From a virus (lineage: Duplodnaviria; Heunggongvirae; Uroviricota; Caudoviricetes), in IMG/VR virus record IMGVR_UViG_2740892229_000018, positions 1 to 32,643 of that record: a DNA stretch of 32,643 bases; one strand, written 5' to 3'. Shown here one piece after another: positions 1 through 32,643 of this stretch. Under the pieces are notes generated by a model. That model made no database searches, had not been told where the DNA came from, and worked only from the letters and a program-made list of their open reading frames with translations. Position 1 is the first letter of the stretch. Every line of letters starts with the position of its first letter. A program made the translations under genes and the position numbers.

Positions 1-933
1 ATGGACAACGACAAAATTGATCAACACAGCGACGAAATTGAAGTTGAGAGCGAAGAAAAAGAGCGCGGCAAAAAAATAGAAATAGATGAAGACCGACTCC
101 CCTCCCGGGCGATGGCAATTCATGAGCATATCCGCCAGGATGGTGAAAAAGAGCTGGAACGCGACGCAATGGCGCTACTGTGGTCAGCCATTGCGGCGGG
201 TCTGTCGATGGGCGCTTCGTTACTGGCAAAAGGGATATTTCATGTCGAACTGGAAGGTGTGCCGGGCAGCTTCTTGCTGGAGAATCTCGGTTATACCTTT
301 GGTTTTATTATCGTCATTATGGCCCGCCAGCAATTATTTACCGAAAATACCGTGACTGCGGTACTACCCGTCATGCAAAAACCGACAATGAGCAACGTCG
401 GCTTACTTATACGGTTATGGGGCGTCGTGCTGCTGGGTAATATTCTCGGGACAGGTATTGCGGCGTGGGCATTTGAATATATGCCTATCTTCAATGAAGA
501 AACTCGCGATGCATTTGTCAAAATCGGCATGGATGTGATGAAGAACACCCCCAGCGAGATGTTTGCCAACGCGATCATTTCCGGCTGGCTGATCGCCACT
601 ATGGTTTGGATGTTTCCTGCAGCGGGTGCGGCAAAGATTGTGGTGATTATATTGATGACCTGGCTTATTGCCCTGGGTGACACCACCCATATCGTGGTCG
701 GTTCTGTTGAAATCCTCTATCTGGTGTTTAACGGTACGCTGCACTGGAGCGATTTCATCTGGCCCTTCGCACTACCTACTTTAGCGGGGAACATCTGCGG
801 CGGCACCTTTATCTTCGCGTTAATGAGTCATGCACAGATTCGTAACGACATGAGCAATAAGCGTAAAGCAGAAGCACGCCAAAAAGCAGAACGTGCGGAA
901 AACATTAAGAAAAATTATAAAAACCCGGCATAA
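1..933 (+). CDS. yfdC: YfdC, formate/nitrite transporter (FNT) family inner membrane protein
   Basis: 310-aa ORF starting at window position 1; multi-pass hydrophobic protein matching my memory of E. coli YfdC, which sits immediately upstream of argW in K-12. Confidence 0.88.
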   Translation: MDNDKIDQHSDEIEVESEEKERGKKIEIDEDRLPSRAMAIHEHIRQDGEKELERDAMALLWSAIAAGLSMGASLLAKGIFHVELEGVPGSFLLENLGYTFGFIIVIMARQQLFTENTVTAVLPVMQKPTMSNVGLLIRLWGVVLLGNILGTGIAAWAFEYMPIFNEETRDAFVKIGMDVMKNTPSEMFANAIISGWLIATMVWMFPAAGAAKIVVIILMTWLIALGDTTHIVVGSVEILYLVFNGTLHWSDFIWPFALPTLAGNICGGTFIFALMSHAQIRNDMSNKRKAEARQKAERAENIKKNYKNPA

Positions 934-1008
934 ATGGCGAGGGTTTAAGCAATCGAGCGGCAGCGTACTTACCCCGCACTCCATTAGCGGGTATACTCAT
1001 GCCGCATT

Positions 1009-1083
1009 GTCCTCTTAGTTAAATGGATATAACGAGCCCCTCCTAAGGGCTAATTGCAGGTTCGATTCCTGCAGGGGACACCA
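1009..1083 (+). tRNA. argW: tRNA-Arg (anticodon CCU)
   Basis: 75-nt sequence GTCCTCTTAGTT...GCAGGGGACACCA read directly; anticodon loop CUCCUAA, T-arm GGTTCGATTCC, 3' CCA encoded. Confidence 0.92.
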
Positions 1084-1178
1084 TTTATCAGTTCGCTCCC
1101 ATCCGTACCAGTCCGCAAAATCCCCTGAATATCAAACCTTCTGTAGATGCACAGTTCGTAATGGTTCGCGTCAGATCG

Positions 1179-1208
1179 TTGACAGCCGCACTCCATGACG
1201 GGTAAAAA
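1179..1208 (+). promoter_or_regulatory. candidate sigma70 promoter for the integrase gene
   Basis: TTGACA at 1179-1184, 17-18 bp spacer, GTAAAA/TAAAAA at 1202-1208, about 40 bp upstream of the int ATG. Confidence 0.3.
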
Positions 1209-1244
1209 GTGGATAAAATAATTTTACCCACCGGATTTTTACCC

Positions 1245-2426
1245 ATGCTCACCGTTAAGCAGATTGAAGCAGCAAAGCCGAAAGAAAAACCATACCGCTT
1301 ACTCGATGGTAATGGCCTGTACCTTTATGTCCCTGTATCCGGAAAAAAGGTCTGGCAGCTTCGCTACAAGATTGACGGTAAGGAGAAAATCCTGACCGTC
1401 GGAAAATATCCGCTTATGACTTTGCAGGAGGCAAGGGATAAAGCATGGACTGCGAGGAAAGACATCTCGGTTGGCATCGATCCGGTAAAGGCGAAAAAGG
1501 CTTCGTCTAACAACAATTCCTTTAGCGCCATTTACAAGGAATGGTACGAGCACAAGAAGCAAGTCTGGTCAGTAGGCTATGCAAATGAACTTGCAAAAAT
1601 GTTTGATGACGACATTTTACCCATCATCGGCGGCCTTGAAATTCAGGATATTGAGCCGATGCAACTGTTGGAAGTAATCCGCAGATTTGAAGATCGCGGC
1701 GCAATGGAGCGAGCCAACAAAGCACGCAGAAGATGCGGCGAGGTTTTCCGTTACGCTATTGTCACTGGTAGGGCTAAATATAACCCGGCACCTGACCTTG
1801 CTGACGCCATGAAGGGATACCGCAAGAAGAACTTCCCGTTTCTTCCTGCAGACCAGATCCCGGCATTTAACAAAGCACTGGCAACATTTTCAGGAAGTAT
1901 CGTATCGCTCATTGCCACCAAGGTTTTACGCTATACAGCCCTAAGAACGAAAGAGCTTCGTTCCATGCTATGGAAGAACGTCGATTTTGAAAACAGGATT
2001 ATCACCATCGACGCCAGTGTGATGAAAGGACGCAAAATTCATGTGGTTCCTATGTCAGACCAGGTGATTGAACTTCTCACTACGCTAAGCTCAATCACTA
2101 AACCGGTATCAGAGTTTGTTTTTGCCGGGCGCAACGATAAGAAGAAGCCAATCTGCGAGAACGCGGTGCTACTTGTGATCAAACAAATCGGCTATGAGGG
2201 GCTGGAAAGCGGTCACGGATTCAGGCATGAATTCAGCACGATTATGAACGAGCACGAATGGCCTGCCGACGCCATTGAAGTGCAACTGGCACATGCCAAC
2301 GGCGGTTCTGTGCGTGGAATTTACAACCATGCTCAGTATCTCGATAAGCGCAGAGAAATGATGCAGTGGTGGGCGGACTGGATTGATGAAAAGGTGGAGC
2401 AACCAACATTGCTATATCTCAGATAG
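1245..2426 (+). CDS. intS: tyrosine integrase, P4/IntS type
   Basis: ORF beginning MLTVKQIEAAKPKEKPYRLLDGNGLY at ATG 1245 (the track ORF starts at an upstream GTG, 1209); matches my memory of K-12 IntS (CPS-53/KplE1); positioned directly after argW and transcribed away from it. Confidence 0.9.
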   Translation: MLTVKQIEAAKPKEKPYRLLDGNGLYLYVPVSGKKVWQLRYKIDGKEKILTVGKYPLMTLQEARDKAWTARKDISVGIDPVKAKKASSNNNSFSAIYKEWYEHKKQVWSVGYANELAKMFDDDILPIIGGLEIQDIEPMQLLEVIRRFEDRGAMERANKARRRCGEVFRYAIVTGRAKYNPAPDLADAMKGYRKKNFPFLPADQIPAFNKALATFSGSIVSLIATKVLRYTALRTKELRSMLWKNVDFENRIITIDASVMKGRKIHVVPMSDQVIELLTTLSSITKPVSEFVFAGRNDKKKPICENAVLLVIKQIGYEGLESGHGFRHEFSTIMNEHEWPADAIEVQLAHANGGSVRGIYNHAQYLDKRREMMQWWADWIDEKVEQPTLLYLR

Positions 2427-2472
2427 CACAAAGCCTTGCAATCCAGTGCAAAGCTTTGTGTGTCTCAGTTTT
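2427..2472 (+). terminator. hairpin immediately after the int stop codon (possible terminator)
   Basis: 13/14-bp stem cacaaagccttgca / tgcaaagctttgtg (2427-2460) with 6-nt loop; TTTT at 2469-2472 is 8 nt further on, so the U-tract is not ideal. Confidence 0.4.
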
Positions 2473-2577
2473 GTCTTATCAACCCTATTGATGCAATAAG
2501 ACAAAAAAAGGCATTAATGACACAAGTGAATAATTAGAAAATGTGGCCGCAACACTTAAGATGCGGCCTTCAATGCA

Positions 2578-4677
2578 TTAAAGAGGTGTTATGGTAAATG
2601 TTACATTTGTCTGGCTTGCACCAAGTGTTACTTCCAAATTCCCACCACTAACGCTGATAGAGGTTATCGAAATTCCAGAGCCACCATAGACAACCTGATT
2701 AGCGGTGTTTACAGAAAGCGTAGAACCATCATAGCTGAACGTAACCCCGTCAGCATAAGATTGATAGTTATTGACGCGTATTTTAAAAATCTCCCTATAA
2801 ACTGACGCGGCTCCTAAAAAACTAGGGAATGCGCCATTGATTTCTGTCAGTGGGATTTGGAAAGTTTTCCCAGGTCCAGAAAATCCCTTTTTGTGTTGGG
2901 ATACTCTGAATGTCTCATAGGAACCAGTTGACAGTAACTGCCCTCTATATGCTGATTCTTTATGAAATGCTTGTACTGACTCCGCATAATTTACGACACC
3001 TCTACCAACCCTTCCTGTGTCAATTTCTAATGTTGAACCAGTATCCACTAAAGATGCCGGGAAGTTAAATGTGGCACCATTCCAGAAGGTTATTCTGGGA
3101 ACGGTGATGTGGGTATTTACACCTGTAATTGTAAATAAGCGTTGGCGTTGTGTGCGTAGAGACAGGTTCAAAACAGCCGACGCTCCTCCGCTAGCCAGTA
3201 TCACTGCATTTGTAGTATCTATAGTGTCGTAGCAGTTGAAGGTCAGCGCTGCCGAACCAGCTACCATATTTATGTACGCGTTCGCTGACGGTGACGGACT
3301 CTCCGCACCAATATCACCAGCAACGTCACACTCTGAAAAATAATAAGATGAACCACCAGAAACACTACCTGCGTTATCGCATGCCGTTGATTGAAAGTTT
3401 ATGTACTGGCATCTTTCCATATGCCATCCATCTAACTCAGCGCCGGCCACATAGCAGCTGCTTATATGTAGACTTGTTGCTGCTTGGTTAACTGCTGCTG
3501 CTGGCGTCCCGCCTGTAGAGGTAAAGCGTGCTGCGTCATAAAAGACACCGTGAGATGTATTCTCAGAGAATCGGCATAAGGTAAGCCCACCTAACCAACC
3601 GCTTTTAACCCACAGACCATGTTTACAACCTCTGGTTCTCACTTTCTCAATGGAGTAGCCAACAACCTGCGGCATATAAATACCAACAGGTCGGTTGTCA
3701 GATGGCGCTAAATGACAGTCAATATATCCACCACTGAATGTCCAGTATCGGCAGATATCATTTCCGCCGATAAGGAAGACGCAGTTAACATCGCCTTCTA
3801 CGTAAGCTCCTTGCGTGGGAATGTATGCATCAAGTCCAGTAGTGGTAGTTGATGTTTTAACAATTGTAGATTCGCCGAGATTTACCGACCAATAGTCAGT
3901 AGCCTGCAATAAAACAGGTTGGTCTATAAGATAGCCACGACCTTTTTCGTCAGGTGTTTTAATCTTACCAAGAGAATCGAACATGTTCTGGAATGCAGCG
4001 GATGAGGAGGTTGCTCCAGACGGTAAAGAGCCATCATCCTGAACTTCAAAGGACACTGCGCCGAAGTCATCTACAGTTACATTTTCTTTATTTACCCGCT
4101 CCCAGTACCACATGGATGACACCACAGCGATTATGCCGCCATCATCGGATGGAATATTAGACATTCCAACTGTAGAGCGGGCAATAAATTCTCCACCACC
4201 TGTACGACCTCCCGAGTAGTAAGATGCCAGAAGAATTCTCTGACCTCCTACTTCTGGAACAATGGTTCGTAGTTCATCAAAAGAATCTACCTGACCGATT
4301 AACTTAAATCCATCAACGCCAGAAAGACGCTTCTCAAATTGGTCAGGGTCGTACTTCAACACATTAGGGAAATAGAACTGCTGCGCCCCATATGCATCGT
4401 ACACAGCCATAGAATGGCCTTGCCCGGTAACGAATTTGGCAATCTGTCCGTTATATACCGGATAACCAGCAGCGTTAATGATGATTGGTTGAGAAACAGG
4501 AACGTGAGAACCGTCTTCGTTCTCTACATAAACCTGAATCCGGTTTTCAGGATTTACCGGATCCGTGTCAATTTTACCGATATAAATTTCGCCATTGGCA
4601 ACTGCTTTAAAAGAACGCGCCATAGTGAAGAGTTGCGAAGGCATCGATACGATCACATTGGCTGTAATGTCTGTCAT
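2578..4677 (-). CDS. tailspike protein with P22 gp9-like N-terminal head-binding domain and a divergent receptor-binding domain
   Basis: 699 aa; N-terminus [29 protein letters not shown]...[10 protein letters not shown] matches the conserved P22 tailspike head-binding domain from memory; the remaining ~580 aa do not resemble the P22 sequence I recall; GGAG RBS 6 nt upstream. Confidence 0.85.
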
Positions 4678-20989: not shown

Positions 20990-21244
20990 TTATGCTCCGG
21001 TAGTGAACAGGTCTAACGCTTCCTTCGATTTACGCACCGCTTCGATTGTGCGGGTCGTGATATCTGAATTAGCGCCGCCTGACTGGAAGTGAATTTTGAA
21101 TAGCTCAAGCTTCAGTTCGTCAGTGCCAATGAATTGAAATGCTTCTTCTGCGGCTGCGTTCTGGTTCATGACCAGTTTGTAAATCTCTAACTGGAATTTC
21201 TGTTCTTCAGTCATGGGAATAATCTCTGCCATTGTTGGCTCCAT
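20990..21244 (-). CDS. hypothetical protein
   Basis: 84-aa ORF upstream of TerS; no recognised motif. Confidence 0.4.
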   Translation of the reverse strand: MEPTMAEIIPMTEEQKFQLEIYKLVMNQNAAAEEAFQFIGTDELKLELFKIHFQSGGANSDITTRTIEAVRKSKEALDLFTTGA

Positions 21245-21335
21245 TTATCCGTTAAAAGGGATATCAGTTAAGTTATCCCGTGTAGGGTATAAGCCATTAT
21301 CAAAGCCACTCTGTAGGGAATGGCTTTTGTAATAA

Positions 21336-21716
21336 CTACTGTTCGCTTAGCTTCTGCTTCAGCAAGTAACCTTCGAGCATCCAGATTTTGTTTACAGCAT
21401 TCTGCCGGGCAATCTTCCGACCAATTTCTGCATCAAAATTTTCCGGACTTGCACAGGCACTCTCTCCGGTGACGGTGAAGCCATTCTTCAGCACCAGTAC
21501 GCAGAAAGTGAGCAACTTCAATGGTGATAAATCACGATCGCCTTCTTCTGGTTTTTCCCTGCCACAATATTCGTTGCTGGAAATGGCACCATTTCGTCCA
21601 TCATAAGCAGTAAAGTAATGCTCGCTTTTAATCACGTCTTCGATGTGCTGCGGGGTGATTCGCGGTGCCGTTTTGCCTTTCTCAACGATTTCTTTTTCGA
21701 TTTGCTGGTCGTTCAT
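21336..21716 (-). CDS. Gp49-like protein (phage N4 gp49 / Sf6 gene 66 family)
   Basis: 126-aa ORF MNDQQIEKEIVEKGKTAP...; family assignment from memory of conserved prophage proteins. Confidence 0.55.
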   Translation of the reverse strand: MNDQQIEKEIVEKGKTAPRITPQHIEDVIKSEHYFTAYDGRNGAISSNEYCGREKPEEGDRDLSPLKLLTFCVLVLKNGFTVTGESACASPENFDAEIGRKIARQNAVNKIWMLEGYLLKQKLSEQ

Positions 21717-21999
21717 AATTATGACCCTGTGGAGTGGTTGCTTGATTAGGATGTCTTTCCATCAGTCCGCCACCACAAAGAATCTTTTTTGCCATAAGGC
21801 AGGAGGTTCATCTTTCAGTGGCTGCCAGTGTTATTTCCCCACTTACTGGCTTGGGTTGTTTCGCGGTACTGCCGTAACTGGTAGTGCACAGATTTAGTTA
21901 AATCTGTTCTCGCCTGAACTATCTTTTACATACCCGGATTGTGGGGATGTAAATCACGGTTTCATTATCAAGCCCACCCGTAGATGGGCTTTGGAATGG

Positions 22000-22518
22000 T
22001 CACTTTGGCAGTCCGGGGATCGATATTTGCGCCTGCTGCTCAAGCCTTTTGATTCTTGCTATGAGTTGCGGTTTTTTGATCCTGCCCCAGCGGTTCAGCA
22101 AGCGTCCTGACATACTGGCAACATCCTTTTCCTTCATGAACTCCAGCATTAACTCGTTGTGCTCTCTTTGGTATGAGTGAGCCATCTCCATCAGCCTGTC
22201 ACGCATCCAATTAAATGCTTTGATAAACGCCTCTTTGATGGCGGCAGCTTTTTTGCCGGTAAACGACATGATGATGTACATCGCACCGTCTTTGGAAATT
22301 TCATATTCAACATACTGATTACCCTTGTGTTCATAGGTAACCCGCGAAAAGTTGCTGGTTAGAAATTCATCCGAACATTCTAGCTTTTCGATTTTCTGAA
22401 TGATGTGGTGATGCTGCTTGTCGAAGTAAGCTGCTACCTTGCGGGAGGTTGTGATCACGCGATCACCAGAAACAACCACCATGTCCCGGAAATCGAGATT
22501 AGCCAATTGATGATTCAT
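22000..22518 (-). CDS. phage regulatory protein, Rha family
   Basis: N-terminal segment MNHQLANLDFRDMVVVSGDRVITTSRKVAAYFDKQHHHIIQKIEKL typical of Rha proteins; ATG 22518 preferred over the track's GTG at 22554. Confidence 0.65.
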   Translation of the reverse strand: MNHQLANLDFRDMVVVSGDRVITTSRKVAAYFDKQHHHIIQKIEKLECSDEFLTSNFSRVTYEHKGNQYVEYEISKDGAMYIIMSFTGKKAAAIKEAFIKAFNWMRDRLMEMAHSYQREHNELMLEFMKEKDVASMSGRLLNRWGRIKKPQLIARIKRLEQQAQISIPGLPK

Positions 22519-22661
22519 AGCGTCTTTACCTTTTAGAAAGTGAGCCTGTCTCACAGAAAAGCCGCCCGAGAGAGGTCGCCACCTATAACGGCATTTCTCA
22601 GGCTCGCTTACTGAAAGGCTCTCGTTAATATGCGCGTGAGATGCGCTGTGAAATTCAGATA

Positions 22662-22689
22662 TAAAAAGCCCCGCGAATGCGAGGCTAAA
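22662..22689 (-). terminator. hairpin with T-run downstream of the lysis cassette
   Basis: Minus-strand agcctcgc-attc-gcggggct (one mismatch) followed by TTTTTAT. Confidence 0.4.
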
Positions 22690-22859
22690 TCCTGGTGTTT
22701 GTGATGACTGGCTCTTATCTCAACGCAGCCCCTTACCGCGCGCCAGATGCTCAATATCAAGCATCAGCAATGAGATGTTTAATCTGGATTCACTCCAGAA
22801 GTGATCACCACCCTGTCTACAGAGCCAGATGTGAAGGATGATGAGTAAAATTATCGCTA

Positions 22860-23327
22860 TCATCGAAGGCATTGCGTCCTGATGTATTCCTGAAGCGTTC
22901 TCAGTGCTGTTTGGTCGCGGATAATTCCGTCCCGGATACCGAGAACGTTTCGTCCAGCAACTGGAGAGAGTTCGACGGTGGCATCATTGCCCATGCCGGA
23001 GGAGCTGGAGGTTTCGGCTGAGGATGGCACAGGGCATTTTCCTTTGACGAGCACCCGACCACCATTATCAAGCTTGCGCCGAAGAGCATCATTTTCAGCT
23101 TTCGCATCAGCTAACTCCTTCGTGTATTTAGCATCGAGTGCATCAGCATCACGCTGGCGCTGTTGCATGTCAGTAATGGTGGCGTTCGCCTTCTCCAGTT
23201 CACTGGCCTTGTTATCGCGCTGTTCTTTGTAGGCGATGGCGTTATCATGGTAATGGTTAACAGCCCATGACAGGCAGACGATGATGCAAATAACCAGAGC
23301 GGAGATAATCGCGGTTACTCTGCTCAT
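22860..23327 (-). CDS. i-spanin Rz
   Basis: N-terminal TM segment [18 protein letters not shown] then coiled coil; start overlaps the endolysin stop (ATGA). Confidence 0.8.
22901..23107 (-). CDS. o-spanin Rz1 (lipoprotein embedded in Rz in another frame)
   Basis: [21 protein letters not shown] has a lipobox, followed by Pro-rich [16 protein letters not shown]; fully inside Rz, as for lambda Rz1. Confidence 0.7.
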
Positions 23328-23827
23328 TGCTGCCCCCACAAACAGACTTCACGCTCAATCTCACGACGAGTCATCAGACCTTTCCATTGCTTACCGCCAG
23401 CGTATGTCCAGCGACGTAGCTGATCACATGCGCCTTTGATATCGCCCTGGTTGATTTTGTGCAGAAGCGTCGATGTTCTGAAATTGCCAGCGCCCACGTT
23501 GTAGACGAACGAGTAAAGAGCGCCGCGCGTTGTTTCCGGTATATCGACTTTGATGTACGGGTTAATTTGTCTGGCGACCGTGGCAAGGTCTTTATTCAGG
23601 AGGGCTTTGCATTCTGCTTCGGTATACGTTTTACCGGGAATGATGTCTTTTCCGGTGTGCCCGTAACATACAGTCCATACACCAACTATGTCTTTGTAAG
23701 GATTATGTCTCACACCTTCCAGACCATCGTTACCACTCGGTCCAGTGATTAACACAGATGCTATAGCAATAGCCCCGCCACTTATCGCCGCTATTACGCT
23801 ATTTCGTAGTGCCGGTGACATTGCCAT
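23324..23827 (-). CDS. SAR endolysin (phage lysozyme, P21 R-type)
   Basis: N-terminal Gly/Ala-rich signal-anchor-release segment [20 protein letters not shown] then lysozyme domain; close to P21 R as I recall it. Confidence 0.88.
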
Positions 23828-24002
23828 TCAATCTGTCCTCGCGCTCTTTGCGCTTGTAGTACCAGTTGATGCCAAATGTGCCGACAGTACAAAGAATACC
23901 AATAATGACAGCCCAGTCATTCAGGGAGAGAATGCCACCCATCGCAGTCAGTCCTCCGAAACTGTAACTGAACCATTCTCTGATTTTGTCCATACGGTAC
24001 AT
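23799..24002 (-). CDS. holin, probable pinholin with dual-start motif
   Basis: 67 aa; MYRMDK gives Met1/Met4 dual starts; two TM segments, the first Gly-rich; overlaps the SAR endolysin gene by 29 nt. Confidence 0.7.
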
Positions 24003-24121
24003 GCTCTACCCCTTCATTGAGGGGATTTGCTCTATTTAATTAGGAATAAGGTCGATTACTGATAGAACAAATCAAGGCCACTGTGTTTAGTAATCAGATT
24101 TGTTCGTGACCGATATGCACG

Positions 24122-24159
24122 GGCAAAACGGCAGGAGGTTGTTAGCGCAACCTCTTGCC
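24122..24159 (-). terminator. lambda tR'-like terminator downstream of pR'
   Basis: Minus-strand hairpin ggcaagaggtt...aacctcctgcc followed by GTTTTGCC; resembles lambda tR' as I recall it. Confidence 0.5.
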
Positions 24160-24295
24160 ACCCGCTTTCACGAAGCCAGTCATTGAGCTGGTTTTCTTTT
24201 ATGCAAAGCACACCGCACCGTAGCCACAGCGGATAAGGTGATTATTTTGGTCTGTCTGGTATTTGGTTTGATGCGCTTTCAGAAAGGTCGTGCTT

Positions 24296-24330
24296 AAAAC
24301 GCAAAAAGCCCCGAGCTATTAACTCAGGGC
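24296..24330 (-). terminator. rho-independent terminator about 57 nt downstream of the pR' start
   Basis: Minus-strand hairpin gccctgag-ttaatag-ctcggggc followed by TTTTTGCGTTTT. Confidence 0.55.
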
Positions 24331-24366
24331 TTTATTTAACGAGTGCATTTATCCATCGTTGAGTCA

Positions 24367-24395
24367 AATTTACCCAACTTTATTCAAAAAGTCAA
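24367..24395 (-). promoter_or_regulatory. late promoter pR' (lambda-type)
   Basis: Minus-strand TTGACT (24390-24395), 17-bp spacer, TAAATT (24367-24372), just downstream of Q; early transcribed sequence GGGTAAATTTGACTCAACGATGG matches lambda as remembered. Confidence 0.65.
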
Positions 24396-24437
24396 TATTA
24401 TGCCGTTAATATGTTGCCATCCGTGGCAATCATGCTG

Positions 24438-25061
24438 CTAACGTGTGACCGCATTCAAAATGTTGTCTGCGATTGACTCTTCTTTGTGGCATTGCACCAC
24501 CAGAGCGTCATACAGCGGCTTAACAGTGCGTGACCAGGTGGGTTGGGTAAGATTTGGGATTAGCATCGTCACAGCGCGATATGCGGCGCTTGCTGGCATC
24601 CTTGAATAGCCGACACCTTTGCATCTTCCGCATTCTTTCTCAACAACTCTCCCCCACTGCTCTGTTTTTGCTATATCAACCGCACGGCCTGTACCGTGAC
24701 AATCTCTGCATCTTGCGCCCGGCGTCGCGGCACTACGGCAATAATCCGCATAAGCGAATGTTGCGAGCACTTGCAGTACCTTTGCCTTAGTATTTCCTTC
24801 GAGCTTTGCCACACCCCGGTATTTCCCCGATACCTTGTGTGCAAATTGCATCAGATAGTTGATAGCCTTTTGTTTGTCGTTCTGGCTGAGTTCGTGCTTA
24901 CCGCAGAATGCAGCCATACCGAATCCGGCTTGTGATTGCGCCATCCCCATAGCAGCCATCACATCAGTACCGGAAAGAGAGTCAGAAGCCGTAGCCCGTG
25001 GTGAGTCGCTCATCATCGGGCTTTTTGGCGAATGAAATTTAGCTACGCTTTCGAGTCTCAT
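24438..25061 (-). CDS. Q: late-gene antiterminator Q
   Basis: 207 aa MRLESVAKFHSPKSPMMSDSPRATASD...ADNILNAVTR, essentially lambda Q from memory. Confidence 0.9.
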   Translation of the reverse strand: MRLESVAKFHSPKSPMMSDSPRATASDSLSGTDVMAAMGMAQSQAGFGMAAFCGKHELSQNDKQKAINYLMQFAHKVSGKYRGVAKLEGNTKAKVLQVLATFAYADYCRSAATPGARCRDCHGTGRAVDIAKTEQWGRVVEKECGRCKGVGYSRMPASAAYRAVTMLIPNLTQPTWSRTVKPLYDALVVQCHKEESIADNILNAVTR

Positions 25062-25246
25062 CGTCTTCCTCTCTTGCCCTGTTTGACCATCAGGACGCCG
25101 TTAACTATTACGTGACGTTCGCCTTTGCTGTCTCGGTTGTACTTGAGCACCGTTCCTCTTGCGCAGGAAAGCATCCTCGCCACTTCGGTCTGATTGCCTC
25201 GTGTCTGTATAAGAAGCTCTGGTATCGTTTGAATTGTGGCGTTCAT
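25058..25246 (-). CDS. ninH: NinH-like protein
   Basis: 62 aa with GNQTEVARML...RGTV..Y motif similar to lambda NinH; ATGA overlap with the Q start. Confidence 0.7.
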   Translation of the reverse strand: MNATIQTIPELLIQTRGNQTEVARMLSCARGTVLKYNRDSKGERHVIVNGVLMVKQGKRGRR

Positions 25247-25605
25247 ACGTTCTCCAGTTCGGTGATTTTTATTCCAAGCCGTCCGCCTGGTACTTTCACG
25301 CCACGAATTACGCGAATGTCATCGAATTGCTCGTCGTCTTCCGCAAATCCGGCGTGGATAAGGGAGTCGAGTAAACCTTTCAGGATGTTGTCGAGGTCGC
25401 GGCGGCGGGAGTCTGGAACGTCTGCGATGACTTTGATGCGGAGTCGTGATTTGGTGAAAATGTCTAACTTGAGTTGGCGGATGATTTGCTGAACGTCTTT
25501 TCGGTATTTCTGGCCTTTATCGCTTATGTAATATTGGCTTCCCCGTCTTCGCCAGTAGGTATTCACCGACGGCGGGTATGGAAGCACAAACTGATATTCG
25601 TTCAT
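25243..25605 (-). CDS. rusA: Holliday junction resolvase RusA
   Basis: 120 aa with LPYPPSVNTYW and RRRDLDN motifs characteristic of RusA. Confidence 0.88.
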   Translation of the reverse strand: MNEYQFVLPYPPSVNTYWRRRGSQYYISDKGQKYRKDVQQIIRQLKLDIFTKSRLRIKVIADVPDSRRRDLDNILKGLLDSLIHAGFAEDDEQFDDIRVIRGVKVPGGRLGIKITELENV

Positions 25606-25892
25606 GGCTTAATCTTCCCCTCCTTCAGCAGTATCGCCTGCGTCCTGATCACGCCTTCGAGGTGGTAAAGTCTGGCGTCTTTGTTGTCGAGATTATGGGT
25701 GCGTCGGTCGATTTCATCGTGACACGCGCTACAAGCCCATGCGCCGATCAGGTCGTCAGGCTTCATTCCAGTTCCGCAAATTCCAGCCATCCGGTAATGT
25801 GCCAGAACTGTAGTTTCAGGATTGCCATTGCATACGCCGTAAATACGTACCTGGCATTCTCTGCCGCGCGCTTCTTTGCGTAGGTTAGCCAT
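25602..25892 (-). CDS. DUF1364 / YbcO-like putative nuclease
   Basis: 96 aa with Cys-rich motif ECQVRIYGVCNGNPETTVLAHYR; adjacent to rusA as ybcO is in DLP12. Confidence 0.7.
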   Translation of the reverse strand: MANLRKEARGRECQVRIYGVCNGNPETTVLAHYRMAGICGTGMKPDDLIGAWACSACHDEIDRRTHNLDNKDARLYHLEGVIRTQAILLKEGKIKP

Positions 25893-26614
25893 TAAGCAGC
25901 CTCCCCTGTTACTTTCAGCATTCCGTTATCGAGCAGCTTTCTGGTCAGCCACTGTTGACCACGCCCGGTGATTTTTGTGGTGAACGATATCTGTATTCCG
26001 TGATTTGTATTGACCGCTGTTTCTTTCACTGTGAAATAGCCGCGCTCCATATATTCCTGCATTGGCACATTGCGCCGGGAACCTGAAGCAATAAGGATTT
26101 TGTGATCGCGCATCCACGCAAACAGTTTGTTTGGACCAATACCGACAACCTTTGCAAAGTTTCCAATCAAAATTCCGCTGGCCTCGCCAACGCGTTCGGC
26201 AAACTCAACTTTAGGTGCGGCAATTGCGAGCTGGTTTTCTAGTTGCATTTTCTGCTCAGCAAGATCAGCAGCAAGGCGCAACGCTTCTGGTAGCGTTTTG
26301 GGGATATTAACCGCAGCTTCTTCAAGCTCTCGCCAGCGGTCAACAAGGCGAGCGGTGAATTCCGGCGACAACTGGGCTACAACGACAATACTGTCTCGCT
26401 TTCCTTGTTCGCCTTCGAATGCATACACACAAAAACTTTGATTTAAGCCTAACCCATTGATTCTTCCACAATCCTCAATTTGAGGAAGCCGGATAACACC
26501 ATTCTTAGCCAGCGTTTCGATGGTACGTTTCACATTGTCATGACGCTTACCCACCAACTCAGCGATTTCAATGCTTGTCATTTTGATGGCATTGCCATTT
26601 ATTAACTCATTCAT
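25892..26614 (-). CDS. antirepressor-like protein, KilAC domain
   Basis: 240 aa occupying the position of ninG in lambda; N-terminal regulatory domain and C-terminal KilAC-like domain, assigned from memory. Start uncertain (26614 or 26581). Confidence 0.6.
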   Translation of the reverse strand: MNELINGNAIKMTSIEIAELVGKRHDNVKRTIETLAKNGVIRLPQIEDCGRINGLGLNQSFCVYAFEGEQGKRDSIVVVAQLSPEFTARLVDRWRELEEAAVNIPKTLPEALRLAADLAEQKMQLENQLAIAAPKVEFAERVGEASGILIGNFAKVVGIGPNKLFAWMRDHKILIASGSRRNVPMQEYMERGYFTVKETAVNTNHGIQISFTTKITGRGQQWLTRKLLDNGMLKVTGEAA

Positions 26615-26783
26615 CGTCTTCTTCCTCGTACATTGAGCTATTCGGATCGCTCATCAGTTCTGCGCAGCAGTGCTCACACACGTGAACTTCCAGCACATGC
26701 AGCTTTTGACCGCAGTTAGCGCACGTTAAAGCTCGCTCGACGCTTTCTTTCTGGTATTGAAGAGATTGGGATGGACTAAGCAT
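26607..26783 (-). CDS. ninF: NinF
   Basis: 58 aa from internal Met: [43 protein letters not shown]..., lambda NinF from memory; Cys4 zinc-ribbon motif. Confidence 0.8.
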   Translation of the reverse strand: MLSPSQSLQYQKESVERALTCANCGQKLHVLEVHVCEHCCAELMSDPNSSMYEEEDDE

Positions 26784-27183
26784 GGCTTTCACCATTAAAA
26801 AGTCGCTTGTAAGCATCAATGTCTCGTTTTGCTTCACCAAGCTTTCGTCTTAATTCCATGTTTTCTGATTCAAGCTTTTCCATGTCTTGCTGGTATCGAT
26901 CGCGGTGTTCTTTCCATGCTTTTCGATACGCCTTCATGTATGTCGTATTGGCCTTTCTCTTTGCCTGACGAACTGCGTGGTGGTTATTCACAAACCAGTC
27001 AGGGTCGTTAAATGCTGCTCTGGCGCATGTATACCAATAATTTGTTGCCTCCCTGTTTAGCCAATAAATACTGATAAATGGCAACTGTATCGACACCATT
27101 TTTCGTTGAGACTCTTTCTCGCCAAACATGTGCCCTTTTTTGATGCTAAGGCCAAATCCAGGTTGAATTAAAAGCATTGTCAT
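26776..27183 (-). CDS. NinX-like hypothetical protein
   Basis: ORF between ninE and ninF where P22 has ninX; start chosen at 27183 because it forms an ATGA overlap with the ninE stop. Confidence 0.5.
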
Positions 27184-27356
27184 TTCCTCGCACGATGTCT
27201 TAGCCACCGGATATCCCACAGGTGAGCCGTGTAGTTGAAGGTTTTTACGTCAGATTCTTTTGGGATTGGCTTGCGTTTATTTCTGGAGCGTTTCGTTGGA
27301 AGGTATTTGCAGTTTTCGCAGATGATGTCGGTGAAACTTCGTCGCTGTCGCCTCAT
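27180..27356 (-). CDS. ninE: NinE
   Basis: 58 aa [58 protein letters not shown], lambda NinE from memory. Confidence 0.85.
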
Positions 27357-27602
27357 GCCGCCCTGTCTCCCCATCTTGCTTTCCACTCCAGAGCCAGTCG
27401 CGCTTCGTCTGACCACTTAACGCCACGTTCTGTACCGAATGCCTGTATAAGCTCTAATATCTCCGCAAATTCGCTTACACGCATCCTGCTGGTTGACTGG
27501 CCTATTACCACAAAGCCATTCCCGGCAAGGTTAGGAACAACGTCCTGCTGCTTTAATGCTGCGGTAAACACACACTTCCAGCTTTCTGCATCCAGCCAGC
27601 GA
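27353..27602 (-). pseudogene. ninB: 3' part of a lambda-type ninB, cut by the scaffold gap
   Basis: Encodes RWLDAESWKCVFTAALKQQDVV...[11 protein letters not shown], the lambda NinB C-terminus; the 5' end is missing at the N-run. Confidence 0.7.
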
Positions 27603-27612
27603 NNNNNNNNNN
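27603..27612. other. assembly/scaffold gap (10 N)
   Basis: Ten consecutive n characters in the sequence. Confidence 1.
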
Positions 27613-27651
27613 ACAGATTATGTCGGTGATACTTCGTCGCTGTCGTCTCAT
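27613..27651 (-). pseudogene. 5' fragment of a second ninE copy, cut by the gap
   Basis: Minus strand reads AGGAGGTACGA ATG AGA CGA CAG CGA CGA AGT ATC ACC GAC ATA ATC TGT (MRRQRRSITDIIC), a diverged copy of the ninE start at 27356; ATGA overlap with the upstream ninB stop. Confidence 0.6.
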
Positions 27652-28058
27652 TCGTACCTCCTGTCGGTAAATCTGACACCCTGACCAATAGCCCAAGCTG
27701 TTGTGTACTCGATAAGACTTGCCATACGCTTCACACTCATCTGCGCGCTGCTTTCGCGAATGTTGACGTATTCGCCTTCAAGCCCAGGCAAAACATCAGC
27801 TTCCTGTTTTGTTGCCACTGCATGACCGCTGATCAACAAAACCTTCCATTGTTCCGGTTTTAACCATTTTCCGCACCATTGAACCTGACGTGCGATATCC
27901 GCCAGCATCGCGTGAAATTTTGCGTTCTGGTCAAGGTTGCGCTTGTAGTCAGTAATGCGGATGGTGACTGGCTTGTCTTTATCGAGTGGTGTTGCGAGGA
28001 TGGCATTTATTGCAGCTTGCTGTTGTTGCTTAGTTCGGAGGAAGATTGTTTGCTTCAC
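27648..28058 (-). CDS. ninB: NinB (recombination mediator), P22-like variant
   Basis: Complete 136-aa ORF homologous to NinB but clearly diverged from the lambda-type fragment on the other side of the gap. Confidence 0.8.
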   Translation of the reverse strand: MKQTIFLRTKQQQQAAINAILATPLDKDKPVTIRITDYKRNLDQNAKFHAMLADIARQVQWCGKWLKPEQWKVLLISGHAVATKQEADVLPGLEGEYVNIRESSAQMSVKRMASLIEYTTAWAIGQGVRFTDRRYE

Positions 28059-28069
28059 TGAATACTCCT

Positions 28070-28261
28070 TTATTTTTTATGCCTGTAACCCCATTCTTCC
28101 AGCAACCTTGCGGCGTACCACCCAAGAAACAAAGGAAAGAACATTACAATGAGATATTCCCCGCCACGGTCAATGTTCGAAATTGACCAGATTACGATGT
28201 AACCAGTGCAGGACAGGAATATTACAAACCCCAAAAAGCTACTTCGTCGACTCATGCTCAC
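28070..28261 (-). CDS. hypothetical small membrane protein
   Basis: 63 aa with two predicted TM helices (FLGFVIFLSCTGYIVIWSI; LIVMFFPLFLGWYAA). Confidence 0.4.
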   Translation of the reverse strand: MSMSRRSSFLGFVIFLSCTGYIVIWSISNIDRGGEYLIVMFFPLFLGWYAARLLEEWGYRHKK

Positions 28262-28572
28262 TCCTTCACTTTTATTCCAGCGGCGCGGATGTTTTCCTCA
28301 TAAGCATCCATTGCATCACCGAAGCCATTGGAATAATCAACAGTAAACCCTTTGGCTAATGCTTCTCTGCTGTCGATAAACTTTGGCGCGATTATTTCAA
28401 TAGCTGCTCGCGATGCCTGCCATAAAGCCCACCACTCATTTAAGGAGTGACGAATATCCATGCTTGAAAATGCAAAGTACCTATCACCATTTCGTGCCTC
28501 GGTTATCATCTCGAATGGTAATCTCAATTTTTTGGCAACGTATTCCTCAAACTGCTTTCTTGATTCGTCCAT
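28258..28572 (-). CDS. hypothetical protein
   Basis: 104-aa ORF, start/stop-coupled with neighbours; no recognised motif. Confidence 0.45.
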   Translation of the reverse strand: MDESRKQFEEYVAKKLRLPFEMITEARNGDRYFAFSSMDIRHSLNEWWALWQASRAAIEIIAPKFIDSREALAKGFTVDYSNGFGDAMDAYEENIRAAGIKVKE

Positions 28573-28589
28573 CGATACTTACCCTCAAT

Positions 28590-28796
28590 TCAACTAACAA
28601 AACGCCACGCCATTTTTGCTACGACAACAGGCATAACACCGATAATCACCCAGACAAATGCAGCGCCAAACAACGTATACCATGGGTCTTTACCGTCATT
28701 CACAAGACGAATGTAGCTATGCAGAACAATAAAAAACGTCAGAAGAATCCATCCAACGCCAACGCATTTGAATGCGACGAGCATAAACTCAGCCAC
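28590..28796 (-). CDS. hypothetical small membrane protein
   Basis: 68 aa with two hydrophobic helices. Confidence 0.4.
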   Translation of the reverse strand: MAEFMLVAFKCVGVGWILLTFFIVLHSYIRLVNDGKDPWYTLFGAAFVWVIIGVMPVVVAKMAWRFVS

Positions 28797-28810
28797 GATT
28801 TACTCTCCCC

Positions 28811-28843
28811 CAAATAAAAAGGCCTGCGATTACCAGCAGGCCT
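28811..28843 (-). terminator. rho-independent terminator after the helicase gene (tR2-like position)
   Basis: Minus-strand 8-bp stem aggcctgc/gcaggcct with 8-nt loop followed by TTTTTATTT. Confidence 0.55.
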
Positions 28844-28868
28844 GTTATTAGCTCAGTGATGTAGATGG

Positions 28869-30245
28869 TCATACGTCAGCCCCTTGTGCATATCGCCTGC
28901 CACGCGCAGCAGGTGCATTTGATGCTGTGCAAATCTGTCTGGCTTCATCCTGGTCACATGCAACAAAGTGTCCGTTGCAGAACCGCTGGTAAACCGTACC
29001 AAGTGAGCCAAAACGGTTTTTCGTCACGATGATTTCAGCAAATGGCGCGGCGCTACTGTTCTCGTCATATACCGCTTCCCGATAGAGCATGATGATTGAG
29101 TCTGCGTCCTGTTCAATGCTTCCTGAATCACGCAAATCTGCGTTTGTCGGGCGTTTGTTTGGTCGCTTCTCAACATCGCGCGAAAGCTGACTCAGGGAGA
29201 TAACAGGCGTTTTTAGGTCTTTCGCCATCGCCTTCAGGCTTCCGGAGATGTGAGCAATTGCAAGGTCGTTGCGGTCTGCTTTCGGCTTCTCAATCAGGCC
29301 AAGATAATCCGCCATGATGAGTGACAGGTTTGGATTTTCCTGTTTGTGCCGTTCTGCGATTGAGCGTATTTCTTCGACCGATAACCGCGAGGCATCGACT
29401 ACCCATACATCCAAATCTGCAAGCTGACTCATGCCGTTAGCAACACGTGCCCAGCCCTCGTCATCCATCGATGCAGGATTTCGCAGCACGCTAACCGACA
29501 TCCTCCCGGCGTTGGCAATACTTCGCTCTGCAATCTGCAATGCGCTCATTTCCATTGAGAAAATCAATACTCCGCGCCGGACGTCAGAACCAGGAATAAC
29601 GCGGCTTGCAACGCCTTCGGCAATCTTCAGCGCCAGTTCGGTTTTCCCCATACCAGGACGAGCAGCGATTATCACCAGGTCTTCCGCGTTCATCCCTCCG
29701 GTGATGGCATCAAGTTCTTCGATTCCGGTCTTCAGGGTATCGGACTCTTCTCCGTTCCTCAGACGCCTGTCAAGCGTGTCAGTGTAGTCAGTAATGATTT
29801 CCCCTAACCGTACAGGTTTTACCTCGTCACGGGGCTTTCTGATGGCTGAAAGACGCTTTACAAGTTCATCCATCGCCTGACTCGATGCGTCGATGGTTCC
29901 GCTCTGAATTGGTTCACGCATTTCATCCATGATTTCCAGCACCAGACGGCGGTGATAGTTATCCGCGACCATTCCGGCATATCCCTTCAGGTTTGCGGCA
30001 CTCGGGCAGTTTTTGCTGGTCATCAGGATTGACGTGAAATGCTCCTCTCCGCACGCCTCGGCAACCATCAGCGCGTCGATTAGGTTTCTGTTTCTCGCCT
30101 GCTTGCGGATAACCTCGAAGGCTTTCCGGTAGAGCGGAATTGAAAACGCTTCCGGCTCAAGCGTTGCCAGAACGTCGCTGGCGGTTGGCGTTAATCCACC
30201 AATCAGCAGACCGCCGATAACGCTCGCTTCGATATCCTGTCTCAT
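28869..30245 (-). CDS. replicative DNA helicase, DnaB family (P22 gene 12-like)
   Basis: 458 aa with Walker A ARPGMGKT and DnaB-like N-terminal domain; downstream of the initiator gene. Confidence 0.9.
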
Positions 30246-31063
30246 GCAATCCCCCTGTCTGCAAACTTCCCTTCACGAACTCCCGTTAACGAATCTTCTC
30301 TCAGCAGGTAATCAAAATCGGCCGTCCAGCCCGTGTCGTTGTCTCCGAAGTAAAACGGCTTGGCCTGATGCACAAACGCCCTGACATACGCCCTGAAACC
30401 GTCCACGTTTGGCGTTTTCAGTTGCGGGATGATTTTCTTCAGGCGGCGTTTGCGTTTCTCGTTGACCGCAACAGCGTGTGGAAGTCTGTCACCGACTTCG
30501 GTGTTGTAGGCGTTCAGGAAGGATTCGTAGTCGATTCGTTCTGCCTTGCGACGTTCAGGTTTAACCTGCCCATCGCCGCCCCCGTTAGGGGGTAAGGGGG
30601 TATTTGTATTTATTGTCTTTTGTATATTGTCTTTTGTGTTTAGCTGACTTGGCTTATACCCATTAGCCGACTTGGCTAATGTTTTATTAGCTGTTTTAGC
30701 TAATGTTAAGCTGTCCTGGCTAATCCACTGAGAAACCACCTTGTTCACTCCGATTTTCACGCCATCAGCAATGAGGAATTTACGCTCAATAAGCTGGCGC
30801 TTGGCAGCGCAAACATGAGTGTGATGAATACCTGTCATGGCTGCTATCTGCGTGTTTGTGAGTCGATCCATCGGCTTATTGAATCCGTATGTCTTGCGCA
30901 TGATAGCGAGCATCACCTTCAACTGCCGGACGGTTAAATCAGCCATCAGCAGACTGTCGGTAATCTCGTTAGCAACGCGCATGAAACCATCTTCGGTATC
31001 TGCCACGCGATGCTCCACGACCTCCAGTTGAGGCCTGTAATCAGCTAACTTAACGACGCCCAT
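30242..31063 (-). CDS. replication initiation protein (lambda O / P22 gene 18-like)
   Basis: 273 aa; origin iterons lie inside the central coding region as in lambda O; start overlaps the upstream small ORF. Confidence 0.8.
30600..30725. repeat. replication origin: four ~18-bp iterons plus AT-rich segment
   Basis: Direct repeats ttagctgacttggcttat (30640), ttagccgacttggctaat (30663), ttagctgttttagctaat (30687), ttaagctgtcctggctaat (30706); adjacent AT-rich stretch with two copies of ttgtcttttgt (30601-30639). Confidence 0.65.
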
Positions 31064-31211
31064 GTTTCACTCCTGCTTTGGCTAGTCTGTAAACACCAAC
31101 AAGGCGCTCTGCGAACGCCCTGTTATTTGCTGCGGCTACCACTAATCCCTCAGGTGAATCAGGGTGTCGAATCTCTTCTTTTTCCTGGTATTTCTTACGA
31201 CGTTTTGTCAT
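31050..31211 (-). CDS. hypothetical 53-aa basic protein between cII and the initiator gene
   Basis: [53 protein letters not shown] from ATG 31211 with AGGAG RBS 7 nt upstream; the RBS/start context looks like the lambda O start as remembered; below the ORF-track length cutoff. Confidence 0.35.
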   Translation of the reverse strand: MTKRRKKYQEKEEIRHPDSPEGLVVAAANNRAFAERLVGVYRLAKAGVKHGRR

Positions 31212-31243
31212 AATTACTCCTGTGGATTGATCCAGTAATGACC

Positions 31244-31537
31244 TCAGAATTCCATCTGGATTTGTTCAGAACGCTCGGTTGCCGCCGGGCGTTTTTTATT
31301 GGTGAGAATCGAAGCAACTTGTCGTGCCAATCGAGCCATGTCGTCGTCAACGACGCCCCATTCAAGAACAGCAAGCAGCATTGAGAACTTTGGAATCCAG
31401 TCCCTCTTCCACCTGCTGATCTGCGACTTATCAACTCCCACAGCTTCCGCTGTCTTCTCAGTTCCAAGCATTGCGATTTTGTTAAGCAACGCACTCTCGA
31501 TTCGTAGAGCCTCGTTGCGTTTGTTTGCACGAACCAT
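31244..31537 (-). CDS. cII: transcriptional activator CII
   Basis: 97 aa MVRANKRNEALRIESALLNKIAMLGTEKTAEAVGVDKSQISRWKRDWIPKF..., essentially lambda CII from memory. Confidence 0.93.
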   Translation of the reverse strand: MVRANKRNEALRIESALLNKIAMLGTEKTAEAVGVDKSQISRWKRDWIPKFSMLLAVLEWGVVDDDMARLARQVASILTNKKRPAATERSEQIQMEF

Positions 31538-31547
31538 ATGTAAGTAT
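31515..31547 (+). promoter_or_regulatory. pRE-like promoter with CII-binding site
   Basis: TTGC-N6-TTGC (31515-31528) with AAGTAT-like -10 about 31541-31546, antisense to the cII start and directed toward cI. Confidence 0.6.
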
Positions 31548-31613
31548 TTCCTTAGATAACAATTGATTGAATGTATGCAAATAAATGCATACACCATAGG
31601 TGTGGTTTAATTT

Positions 31614-31649
31614 GATGCCCTTTTTCAGGGAGGTGATGTGTAAGAGCGG
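31614..31649 (-). promoter_or_regulatory. nutR-like site (boxA + boxB)
   Basis: Minus-strand CGCTCTTA (boxA) then CCCTGAAAAAGGG (boxB hairpin), starting 9 nt after the cro stop. Confidence 0.65.
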
Positions 31650-31656
31650 GAATGTC

Positions 31657-31872
31657 TTAAGCGGCTTTGTGTTCCGGCGGGAACACGTCATCAAGACTGA
31701 CTTTTGCGCCTAACTTGTTTAGGCACTCAACAAGAGCACGGCATGTTTTAAGGTCTGGGAAGCGACGACCAGATTCCCAATGTCCGATAGCTCCCTGTGT
31801 GCATCCAACTGCCTTAGCAAGTGTTGTTTGAGAGATACTCAGTGACTCTCGATATTTTCGTAGGTTGCTCAT
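31657..31872 (-). CDS. cro: Cro-like HTH repressor (non-lambda immunity)
   Basis: 71 aa MSNLRKYRESLSISQTTLAKAVGCTQGAIGHWESGRR... with XRE-type HTH; GGAGG RBS; divergent from cI and upstream of nutR and cII. Confidence 0.75.
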   Translation of the reverse strand: MSNLRKYRESLSISQTTLAKAVGCTQGAIGHWESGRRFPDLKTCRALVECLNKLGAKVSLDDVFPPEHKAA

Positions 31873-31983: not shown

Positions 31984-32643
31984 ATGAAAATGAAATGGTA
32001 TGAACTGGCTAGATCCAGAATGAAAGAGCTCGGCATAACTCAAGAGAAGTTAGCTGAAGAGCTTGGTATGACGCAGGGTGGAATTGGTCACTGGTTGCGC
32101 GGATCTCGTCATCCATCTCTTGACGAGATTGGTGTGGTGTTTAAATACCTTGGTATTGATAACGTCTCATTCAACCACGACGGTACATTTTCACCTGTTG
32201 GCGAATACTCATCTGCCCCCGTTAAAAAACAATATGAGTACCCTGTTTTTTCTCATGTTCAGGCAGGGATGTTCTCGCCTGAGCTTAGAACCTTTACCAA
32301 AGGTGATGCGGAGAGATGGGTCAGCACAACCAAAAAAGCCAGTGATTGTGCGTTTTGGCTTGAAGTTGAAGGTAATTCCATGACCGCGCCAACAGGCTCC
32401 AAGCCAAGCTTTCCTGACGGAATGTTAATTCTCGTTGACCCCGAGCAGGCTGTTGAGCCAGGTGATTTCTGCATAGCCAGACTTGGTGGTGACGAGTTTA
32501 CCTTCAAGAAACTGATCAGGGATAGCGGTCAGGTGTTCCTACAGCCACTAAACCCGCAATATCCAATGATTCCATGCAATGATAGCTGTTCCGTAGTAGG
32601 GAAAGTTATCGCCAGCCAGTGGCCTGAAGAGACATTTAGTTAA
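31984..32643 (+). CDS. cI: CI-type prophage repressor (HTH plus S24 LexA-like autopeptidase domain)
   Basis: N-terminal [23 protein letters not shown]; C-terminal domain with GNSM and ending [16 protein letters not shown] like lambda CI as I recall; start at 31984 or 31990; stop codon is the last triplet of the window. Confidence 0.85.

Follow-up and report, generated by a model that had tools for sequence, protein, structure and literature searches.

The ninB-ninE junction occurs twice, once on each side of a scaffold gap, in the lambdoid prophage DNA analysed here (32,643 nt in full, referred to as the window). This duplicated junction is very probably a product of assembly and scaffolding, in which two prophage branches were written in series, and not a biological duplication. 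We base this reading on the scaffold join that separates the two copies, on the finding that one of the joined contigs ends at its last allele-specific base, on the recurrence of this break point in other assemblies, and on the absence of the tandem layout elsewhere.

The gap is a run of 10 N at positions 27603-27612 (without strand), which is the sole non-ACGT run of the window. The same run is found in the public record, at L033:5558-5567. This record, CCPP01000028.1 of the draft assembly GCA_000752895.1, is 150,558 bp long and carries the N run at record positions 144,992-145,001; the window begins at approximately position 117,390 of the record, which runs 526 nt past the window end. It follows from the positions of the N run and of the record end that the gap joins a contig of 144,991 bp to a terminal contig of 5,557 bp. 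The end of the large (left) contig occupies 1-27602 of the window (minus strand; defined by ORF calls, the gene index and a tRNA gene), while the small (right) contig occupies 27613-32643 (minus strand; 5,031 of its 5,557 nt, defined by gene calls and Pfam matches). All of the genes around the gap are located on the minus strand.

The left contig contains yfdC, the tRNA-Arg(CCT) gene argW (1009-1083), an integrase gene (1209-2426, plus strand), a gene for a tailspike of 699 aa (2578-4677, minus strand), P22-like late genes, lysis genes, Q (24438-25061) and NinH, followed by RusA, YbcO, ANT, NinF, a 133-aa ORF, ninE and the tip of a ninB gene (ninB146). The latter, referred to below as the B tip, comprises the 3' 250 nt (27353-27602, minus strand) of a lambda/P22-type ninB, i.e. 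residues 65-146, and forms the end of the large contig. The 82 encoded residues are identical at 80 positions to residues 65-146 of lambda NinB (PDB 1PC6, E = 1.7e-50). The public record lists an 82-aa partial NinB with a PF05772 match for this fragment too, and in the public gene index this exact protein is present only on CCPP01000028.1. Residues 1-64 are missing from the left NinB, and it is at this point that the contig starts. The truncation is an assembly effect and does not demonstrate pseudogene status. The fragment is followed by a complete ninE of 58 aa (27180-27356, minus strand; ORF with a PF05322 match) carrying the 5' end designated allele B; its exact protein occurs in 6,045 blocks of the gene index. 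The left side was thus correctly described in the initial annotation as the 3' part of a lambda-like ninB followed by a complete ninE.

Several other features of the left contig deserve mention in their own right. The usual NinX slot (approximately 26776-27178, minus strand) is occupied by the 133-aa ORF, which has no Pfam match on record and overlaps a 69-aa NinF variant; this pair is also present in L013, L015, L020, L031 and L039. The exact sequence of the 699-aa tailspike (a head-binding domain plus a beta-helix) is found in the public gene index on one contig only, that of the source record, and the protein may be a rare receptor-binding variant. At the other end of the prophage (933-4677), tRNA-Arg(CCT) is followed by the plus-strand integrase gene, which converges on the tailspike gene, so the att site (argW) is located 5' of int. 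This differs from P22, in which attP is 3' of int. The same adjacency, with argW 5' of int, occurs in CPS-53 of K-12 and is presumably normal for elements integrating at argW. A second mis-join, at the integrase/tailspike boundary, was considered and rejected, since an att site 5' of int is normal for an argW integration module.

The right contig encodes cI (plus strand), cro, cII, O (30242-31063), a DnaB-type helicase (28869-30245), three small ORFs, a complete ninB (ninB136) and the first 13 codons of ninE. The NinB of 136 aa (27648-28058, minus strand; ORF with a PF05772 match) is of the HK620/H-19B type, which is also present in HK629/630 and in Stx phages, and it aligns with residues 3-130 of lambda NinB 1PC6 (E = 6e-22). 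NinB136, NinE and the helicase each occur in thousands of gene-index blocks. The 13 ninE codons (27651-27613, minus strand, 39 nt), MRRQRRSITDIIC, represent allele A, and an identical 39-mer is present in L002, L003 and L005. It had been noted from the letters alone that both flanks of the gap carry a ninB stop codon overlapping a ninE start codon, and this is indeed the case: the TGA of ninB136 overlaps the ATG of ninE (ATGA) at 27648-27651, and the TGA of the left ninB likewise overlaps that of the complete ninE at 27353-27356. The description of the right side as a complete P22-like ninB followed by 13 ninE codons is accurate as regards completeness and codon number. The P22-like label does not apply, since this protein is 39% identical to P22 NinB (145 aa), whereas P22 NinB and the left fragment share 94% identity.

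The other end of the right contig, located 526 nt past the window, reaches 31 nt into a lambda-type N gene and breaks off there (translating as ..DAQTRRRERR). The contig is thus cut inside N as well as inside ninE, and can therefore be regarded as a unique module bounded on both sides by conserved genes. Its nearest relatives, L002 and L005, are 98.9% identical to it over 27613-31668 (approximately 4 kb) and contain no ambiguous bases. The N gene at the record end (L033:1-45, minus strand, past window position 32643) has ATT in place of the ATG start codon that is present in L002, L005, L007 and L008. This triplet lies 31 nt from the contig end, and it could be either a true start-codon mutation or an end-of-contig error. 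An estimate of the k-mer size from the 31 nt between this private ATT and the record end was also considered; as it implies an even k, it is not interpretable and was dropped.

The proteins encoded by the two ninB genes are different (34% identity over the homologous part), and the 5' ends of ninE in the two contigs differ at 4 of 39 nt, which bears out the earlier view that this is not one locus read twice. The last of the four differences is located at 27613, which is the final base of the right contig; among the common polymorphisms, a TGT/TGC site in ninE codon 13 is the one closest to the conserved part of the gene. How this sequence continues can be seen directly in L002 and L005, in which the allele A 39-mer leads into 138 nt that match ninE of the left contig at every position. 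Since the right contig stops at its last allele-specific base and its relatives continue identically, it stops precisely where its continuation is already present in the large contig. A contig end at the boundary between allele-specific and shared sequence is what is expected of an assembly graph in which two paths coming from upstream merge into one common segment. The minimal repeat shared by both branches is a conserved ninE linker at 27175-27317 (minus strand), which includes the 138 nt of ninE that are identical in L002 and L005.

The same position is a break point in other genomes. A partial NinE beginning at codon 14 is encoded by 18 contigs in other draft E. coli assemblies. Among the matches listed (10 of the 18), all 10 have this partial NinE at a contig end, starting GAAAACTGC, with the first base equivalent to 27317, i.e. 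the base immediately following the last base of the right contig. Five of these 10 contigs share exactly 143 nt with the window (27175-27317), after which the genes of the NinX slot diverge. Moreover, two draft assemblies each contain two contigs that start at the same ninE base: GCA_029337895.1 (L034/L035) and GCA_017278235.1 (L038/L040). The two contigs of the latter, which begin at the equivalent of 27317, are common for only 184 nt before they diverge. As at least ten contigs elsewhere start at this base, it is a position at which contigs break repeatedly. The 138 nt of ninE show 0-2 mismatches at 16 of 20 loci; given this near-invariance and the divergence of the neighbouring genes, ninE acts as a short linker between variable modules.

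We also considered whether the two branches form a closed bubble, i.e. whether the ninB146 tip rejoins ninB136 upstream. This was rejected because the homologous site shares only approximately 9 nt (CGTCAGGTT). Upstream of 27602 there is no identity of k-mer length between the ninB146 branch and the contig carrying ninB136. The large contig starts at 27602, midway through a conserved stretch of ninB146, and the 5' half of that gene would end ...GAATGGCATGG. The start at this position might reflect a further fork involving a third element that bears ninB146, or an extension during gap filling that stopped for want of reads.

The following sequence of events most probably accounts for the observed structure. 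The sample would hold at least two lambdoid sequences that differ upstream of ninE, one with ninB136 and allele A, the other with the lambda-type ninB146 and allele B. From ninE codon 14 onwards they would become identical, and this would create a fork in the assembly graph. The large contig would have continued past the fork along 285 nt of the ninB146 branch, while the ninB136 branch would have been left as a contig of 5.56 kb, ending at the fork on one side and at a second likely repeat, inside N, on the other. A scaffolding step would then have appended the small contig to the large one, most likely by means of read pairs in or beyond the shared ninE, or alternatively through reference-guided ordering. 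Because the two pieces overlap in homologous position and not in sequence, the scaffolder would have written a minimal gap of 10 N and placed the alternative branches in series. The position of the fork, the identical continuation in close relatives, the repeated break point in other assemblies and the lack of the tandem layout elsewhere are direct observations. A second prophage in the strain is inferred, as are the number of copies of the shared segment and the grounds on which the scaffold link was made; the second lambdoid sequence is postulated because the small contig is cut in both N and ninE, and because the ninB146 branch enters the same ninE.

The two branches could in principle also derive from a mixed template, i.e. 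a heterogeneous culture or a low-level second strain, in which they would occupy the same locus in different cells. A polymorphic population would likewise yield a fork with both branches on one downstream sequence, and the small length of the B branch (285 nt) would fit a minor variant. However, the right contig is also broken at N, which is explained more simply by two resident prophages sharing modules; several such prophages are very common in E. coli, and the window, with its single gap, shows no other sign of a mixture. We therefore regard a mixed template as very unlikely, and retain the reading in which both branches come from prophages of one strain.

The query 27180-28058 was compared with 5,426 complete E. 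coli genomes and 50,697 phage records, using a criterion of at least 80% coverage. At this threshold, both ninB types in tandem were found in 0 of the 5,426 genomes and in 0 of the 50,697 phage records. The highest coverage obtained was 71%, and it corresponded to a simple ninB136-ninE junction. The query matched 3,806 places in 2,233 complete genomes (up to 7 per genome), and both ninB types were found within joining distance of each other in none of these 2,233 genomes and in none of the 425 phage records with a match. The individual junctions are nevertheless found in nature, since ninB136-ninE is present in L002, L005, many other prophages, HK620, HK629 and H-19B. A direct ninB146-ninE junction occurs in L024 and L030, where 27184-27602 is matched in one piece (97.6-98.1%), and the order ninB146-Dam-ninE is seen at many other loci.

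Absence from these collections does not exclude an event specific to this strain, such as a real tandem duplication or a recombination scar with the order ninB136 - ninE - ninB146 - ninE (partial or full) on one molecule, resulting from illegitimate or offset recombination. In the record both pieces are indeed adjacent and in the same orientation, and a fork at this base would be expected as well if ninE were present twice in one tandem cassette. Against this, both ninB types were found together in no genome or phage record with a match, and the contig ends at a generic recurrent break point. Moreover, in a tandem the 5' half of ninB146 should be unique and contiguous with the tip, yet the large contig begins in the middle of the gene at 27602. 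Such a scar is consequently extremely improbable. It is just as improbable that the strain carries a hybrid nin region (ninB136 - ninE' - 'ninB146 - ninE), generated by offset recombination between two resident prophages and caught at an intermediate stage of mosaic formation at the ninE linker.

Another possibility is that the order of the contigs is correct and the gap greatly underestimated. Two related prophages would then lie in tandem or near each other; the right contig would truly be located to the right of the left contig, at a distance of tens of kb, and the nin-late copy between them would have been collapsed onto the left contig. Such a layout agrees with the orientation in the scaffold, and P22-like late and nin modules can be highly identical between prophages of one genome, as in CP042246.1, whose two prophages (L021 and L022) have the same gene string from helicase to NinH. 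Such an arrangement would require a perfect repeat of considerable length, but the left contig extends over 27 kb into unique chromosome without interruption, and nothing in the data points to polylysogeny at argW. The probability of a collapsed tandem is therefore very small, and alternative branches written in series remain the preferred explanation.

The initial annotation had offered two options, a genuine duplication (partial and in tandem) or the joining of contigs from different prophages, and leaned to the latter. Our results strongly favour an origin in assembly or scaffolding; to assign the two halves to different prophages is more than they support. The chances that the right contig is part of the argW prophage are in fact roughly even. 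The two contigs could be true neighbours, and the 285-nt ninB146 tip (27318-27602) the sole foreign piece, because the sequence that naturally follows the right contig matches the left contig without differences from 27317 downwards, and because single prophages exist that contain both module sets at 98-99% identity. One example is L005, which matches 20995-26783 at 98.4% and 27613-31668 at 98.9%, and thus holds both sets in one prophage. L031 matches 24000-27364 at 98.4% and 28590-31623 at 97.6%, and LF82 is a further case in which the modules of the right contig are combined with the nin-late modules of the left. Given the mosaicism of these elements, such prophages (L005, L031 and LF82) provide a weak lean towards linkage. 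On the other side, the left contig is continuous with the ninB146 branch, which speaks for that branch as the true neighbour, and the 143-nt linker is sufficient to produce spurious read-pair links in a mapping-based scaffolder. The neighbour of the nin-late region of the argW prophage could thus be the A branch, the B branch, or both if the repeat is long.

These considerations have practical consequences. Prophage calling on CCPP01000028.1 would show one "intact" P22-like argW prophage with an odd extra ninB fragment. It would also assign the immunity/replication module of the 5.56-kb contig to this prophage, an assignment that is not secured. Where E. coli strains with several lambdoid prophages are assembled from short reads, a fork recurs at the base that follows ninE codon 13, and scaffold joins at this fork should not be trusted for linking the early and late halves of a prophage. 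Contigs of CCPP01 starting GAAAACTGCAAATACC, or containing a second N gene, would, if present, reveal the second prophage.

In its local organization the locus resembles the mosaic nin regions of lambda, P22, HK620 and H-19B, in which ninB is followed by ninE with an ATGA overlap, and a near-invariant ninE is flanked by variable sequences. Natural mosaics, however, contain one ninB per nin region, while both types occur here, an arrangement seen in none of the complete genomes and phage records searched.

In short-read assemblies of E. coli genomes, contig breaks and forks arise at modules common to several lambdoid prophages. The case described here is similar, in that the right contig ends exactly where the alleles become identical, and a small contig with the immunity and replication genes is delimited by N and ninE. 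It differs from the usual breaks at prophage repeats in that the dangling branch was scaffolded onto a contig already bearing the other branch, which created a false tandem duplication. Draft assemblies also contain false duplications that originate from linearised alternative branches (haplotype bubbles). The present structure is not closed, and its alternatives are paralogous prophages instead of diploid alleles; like such duplications, it consists of two versions of one locus placed in series, with a gap between them.
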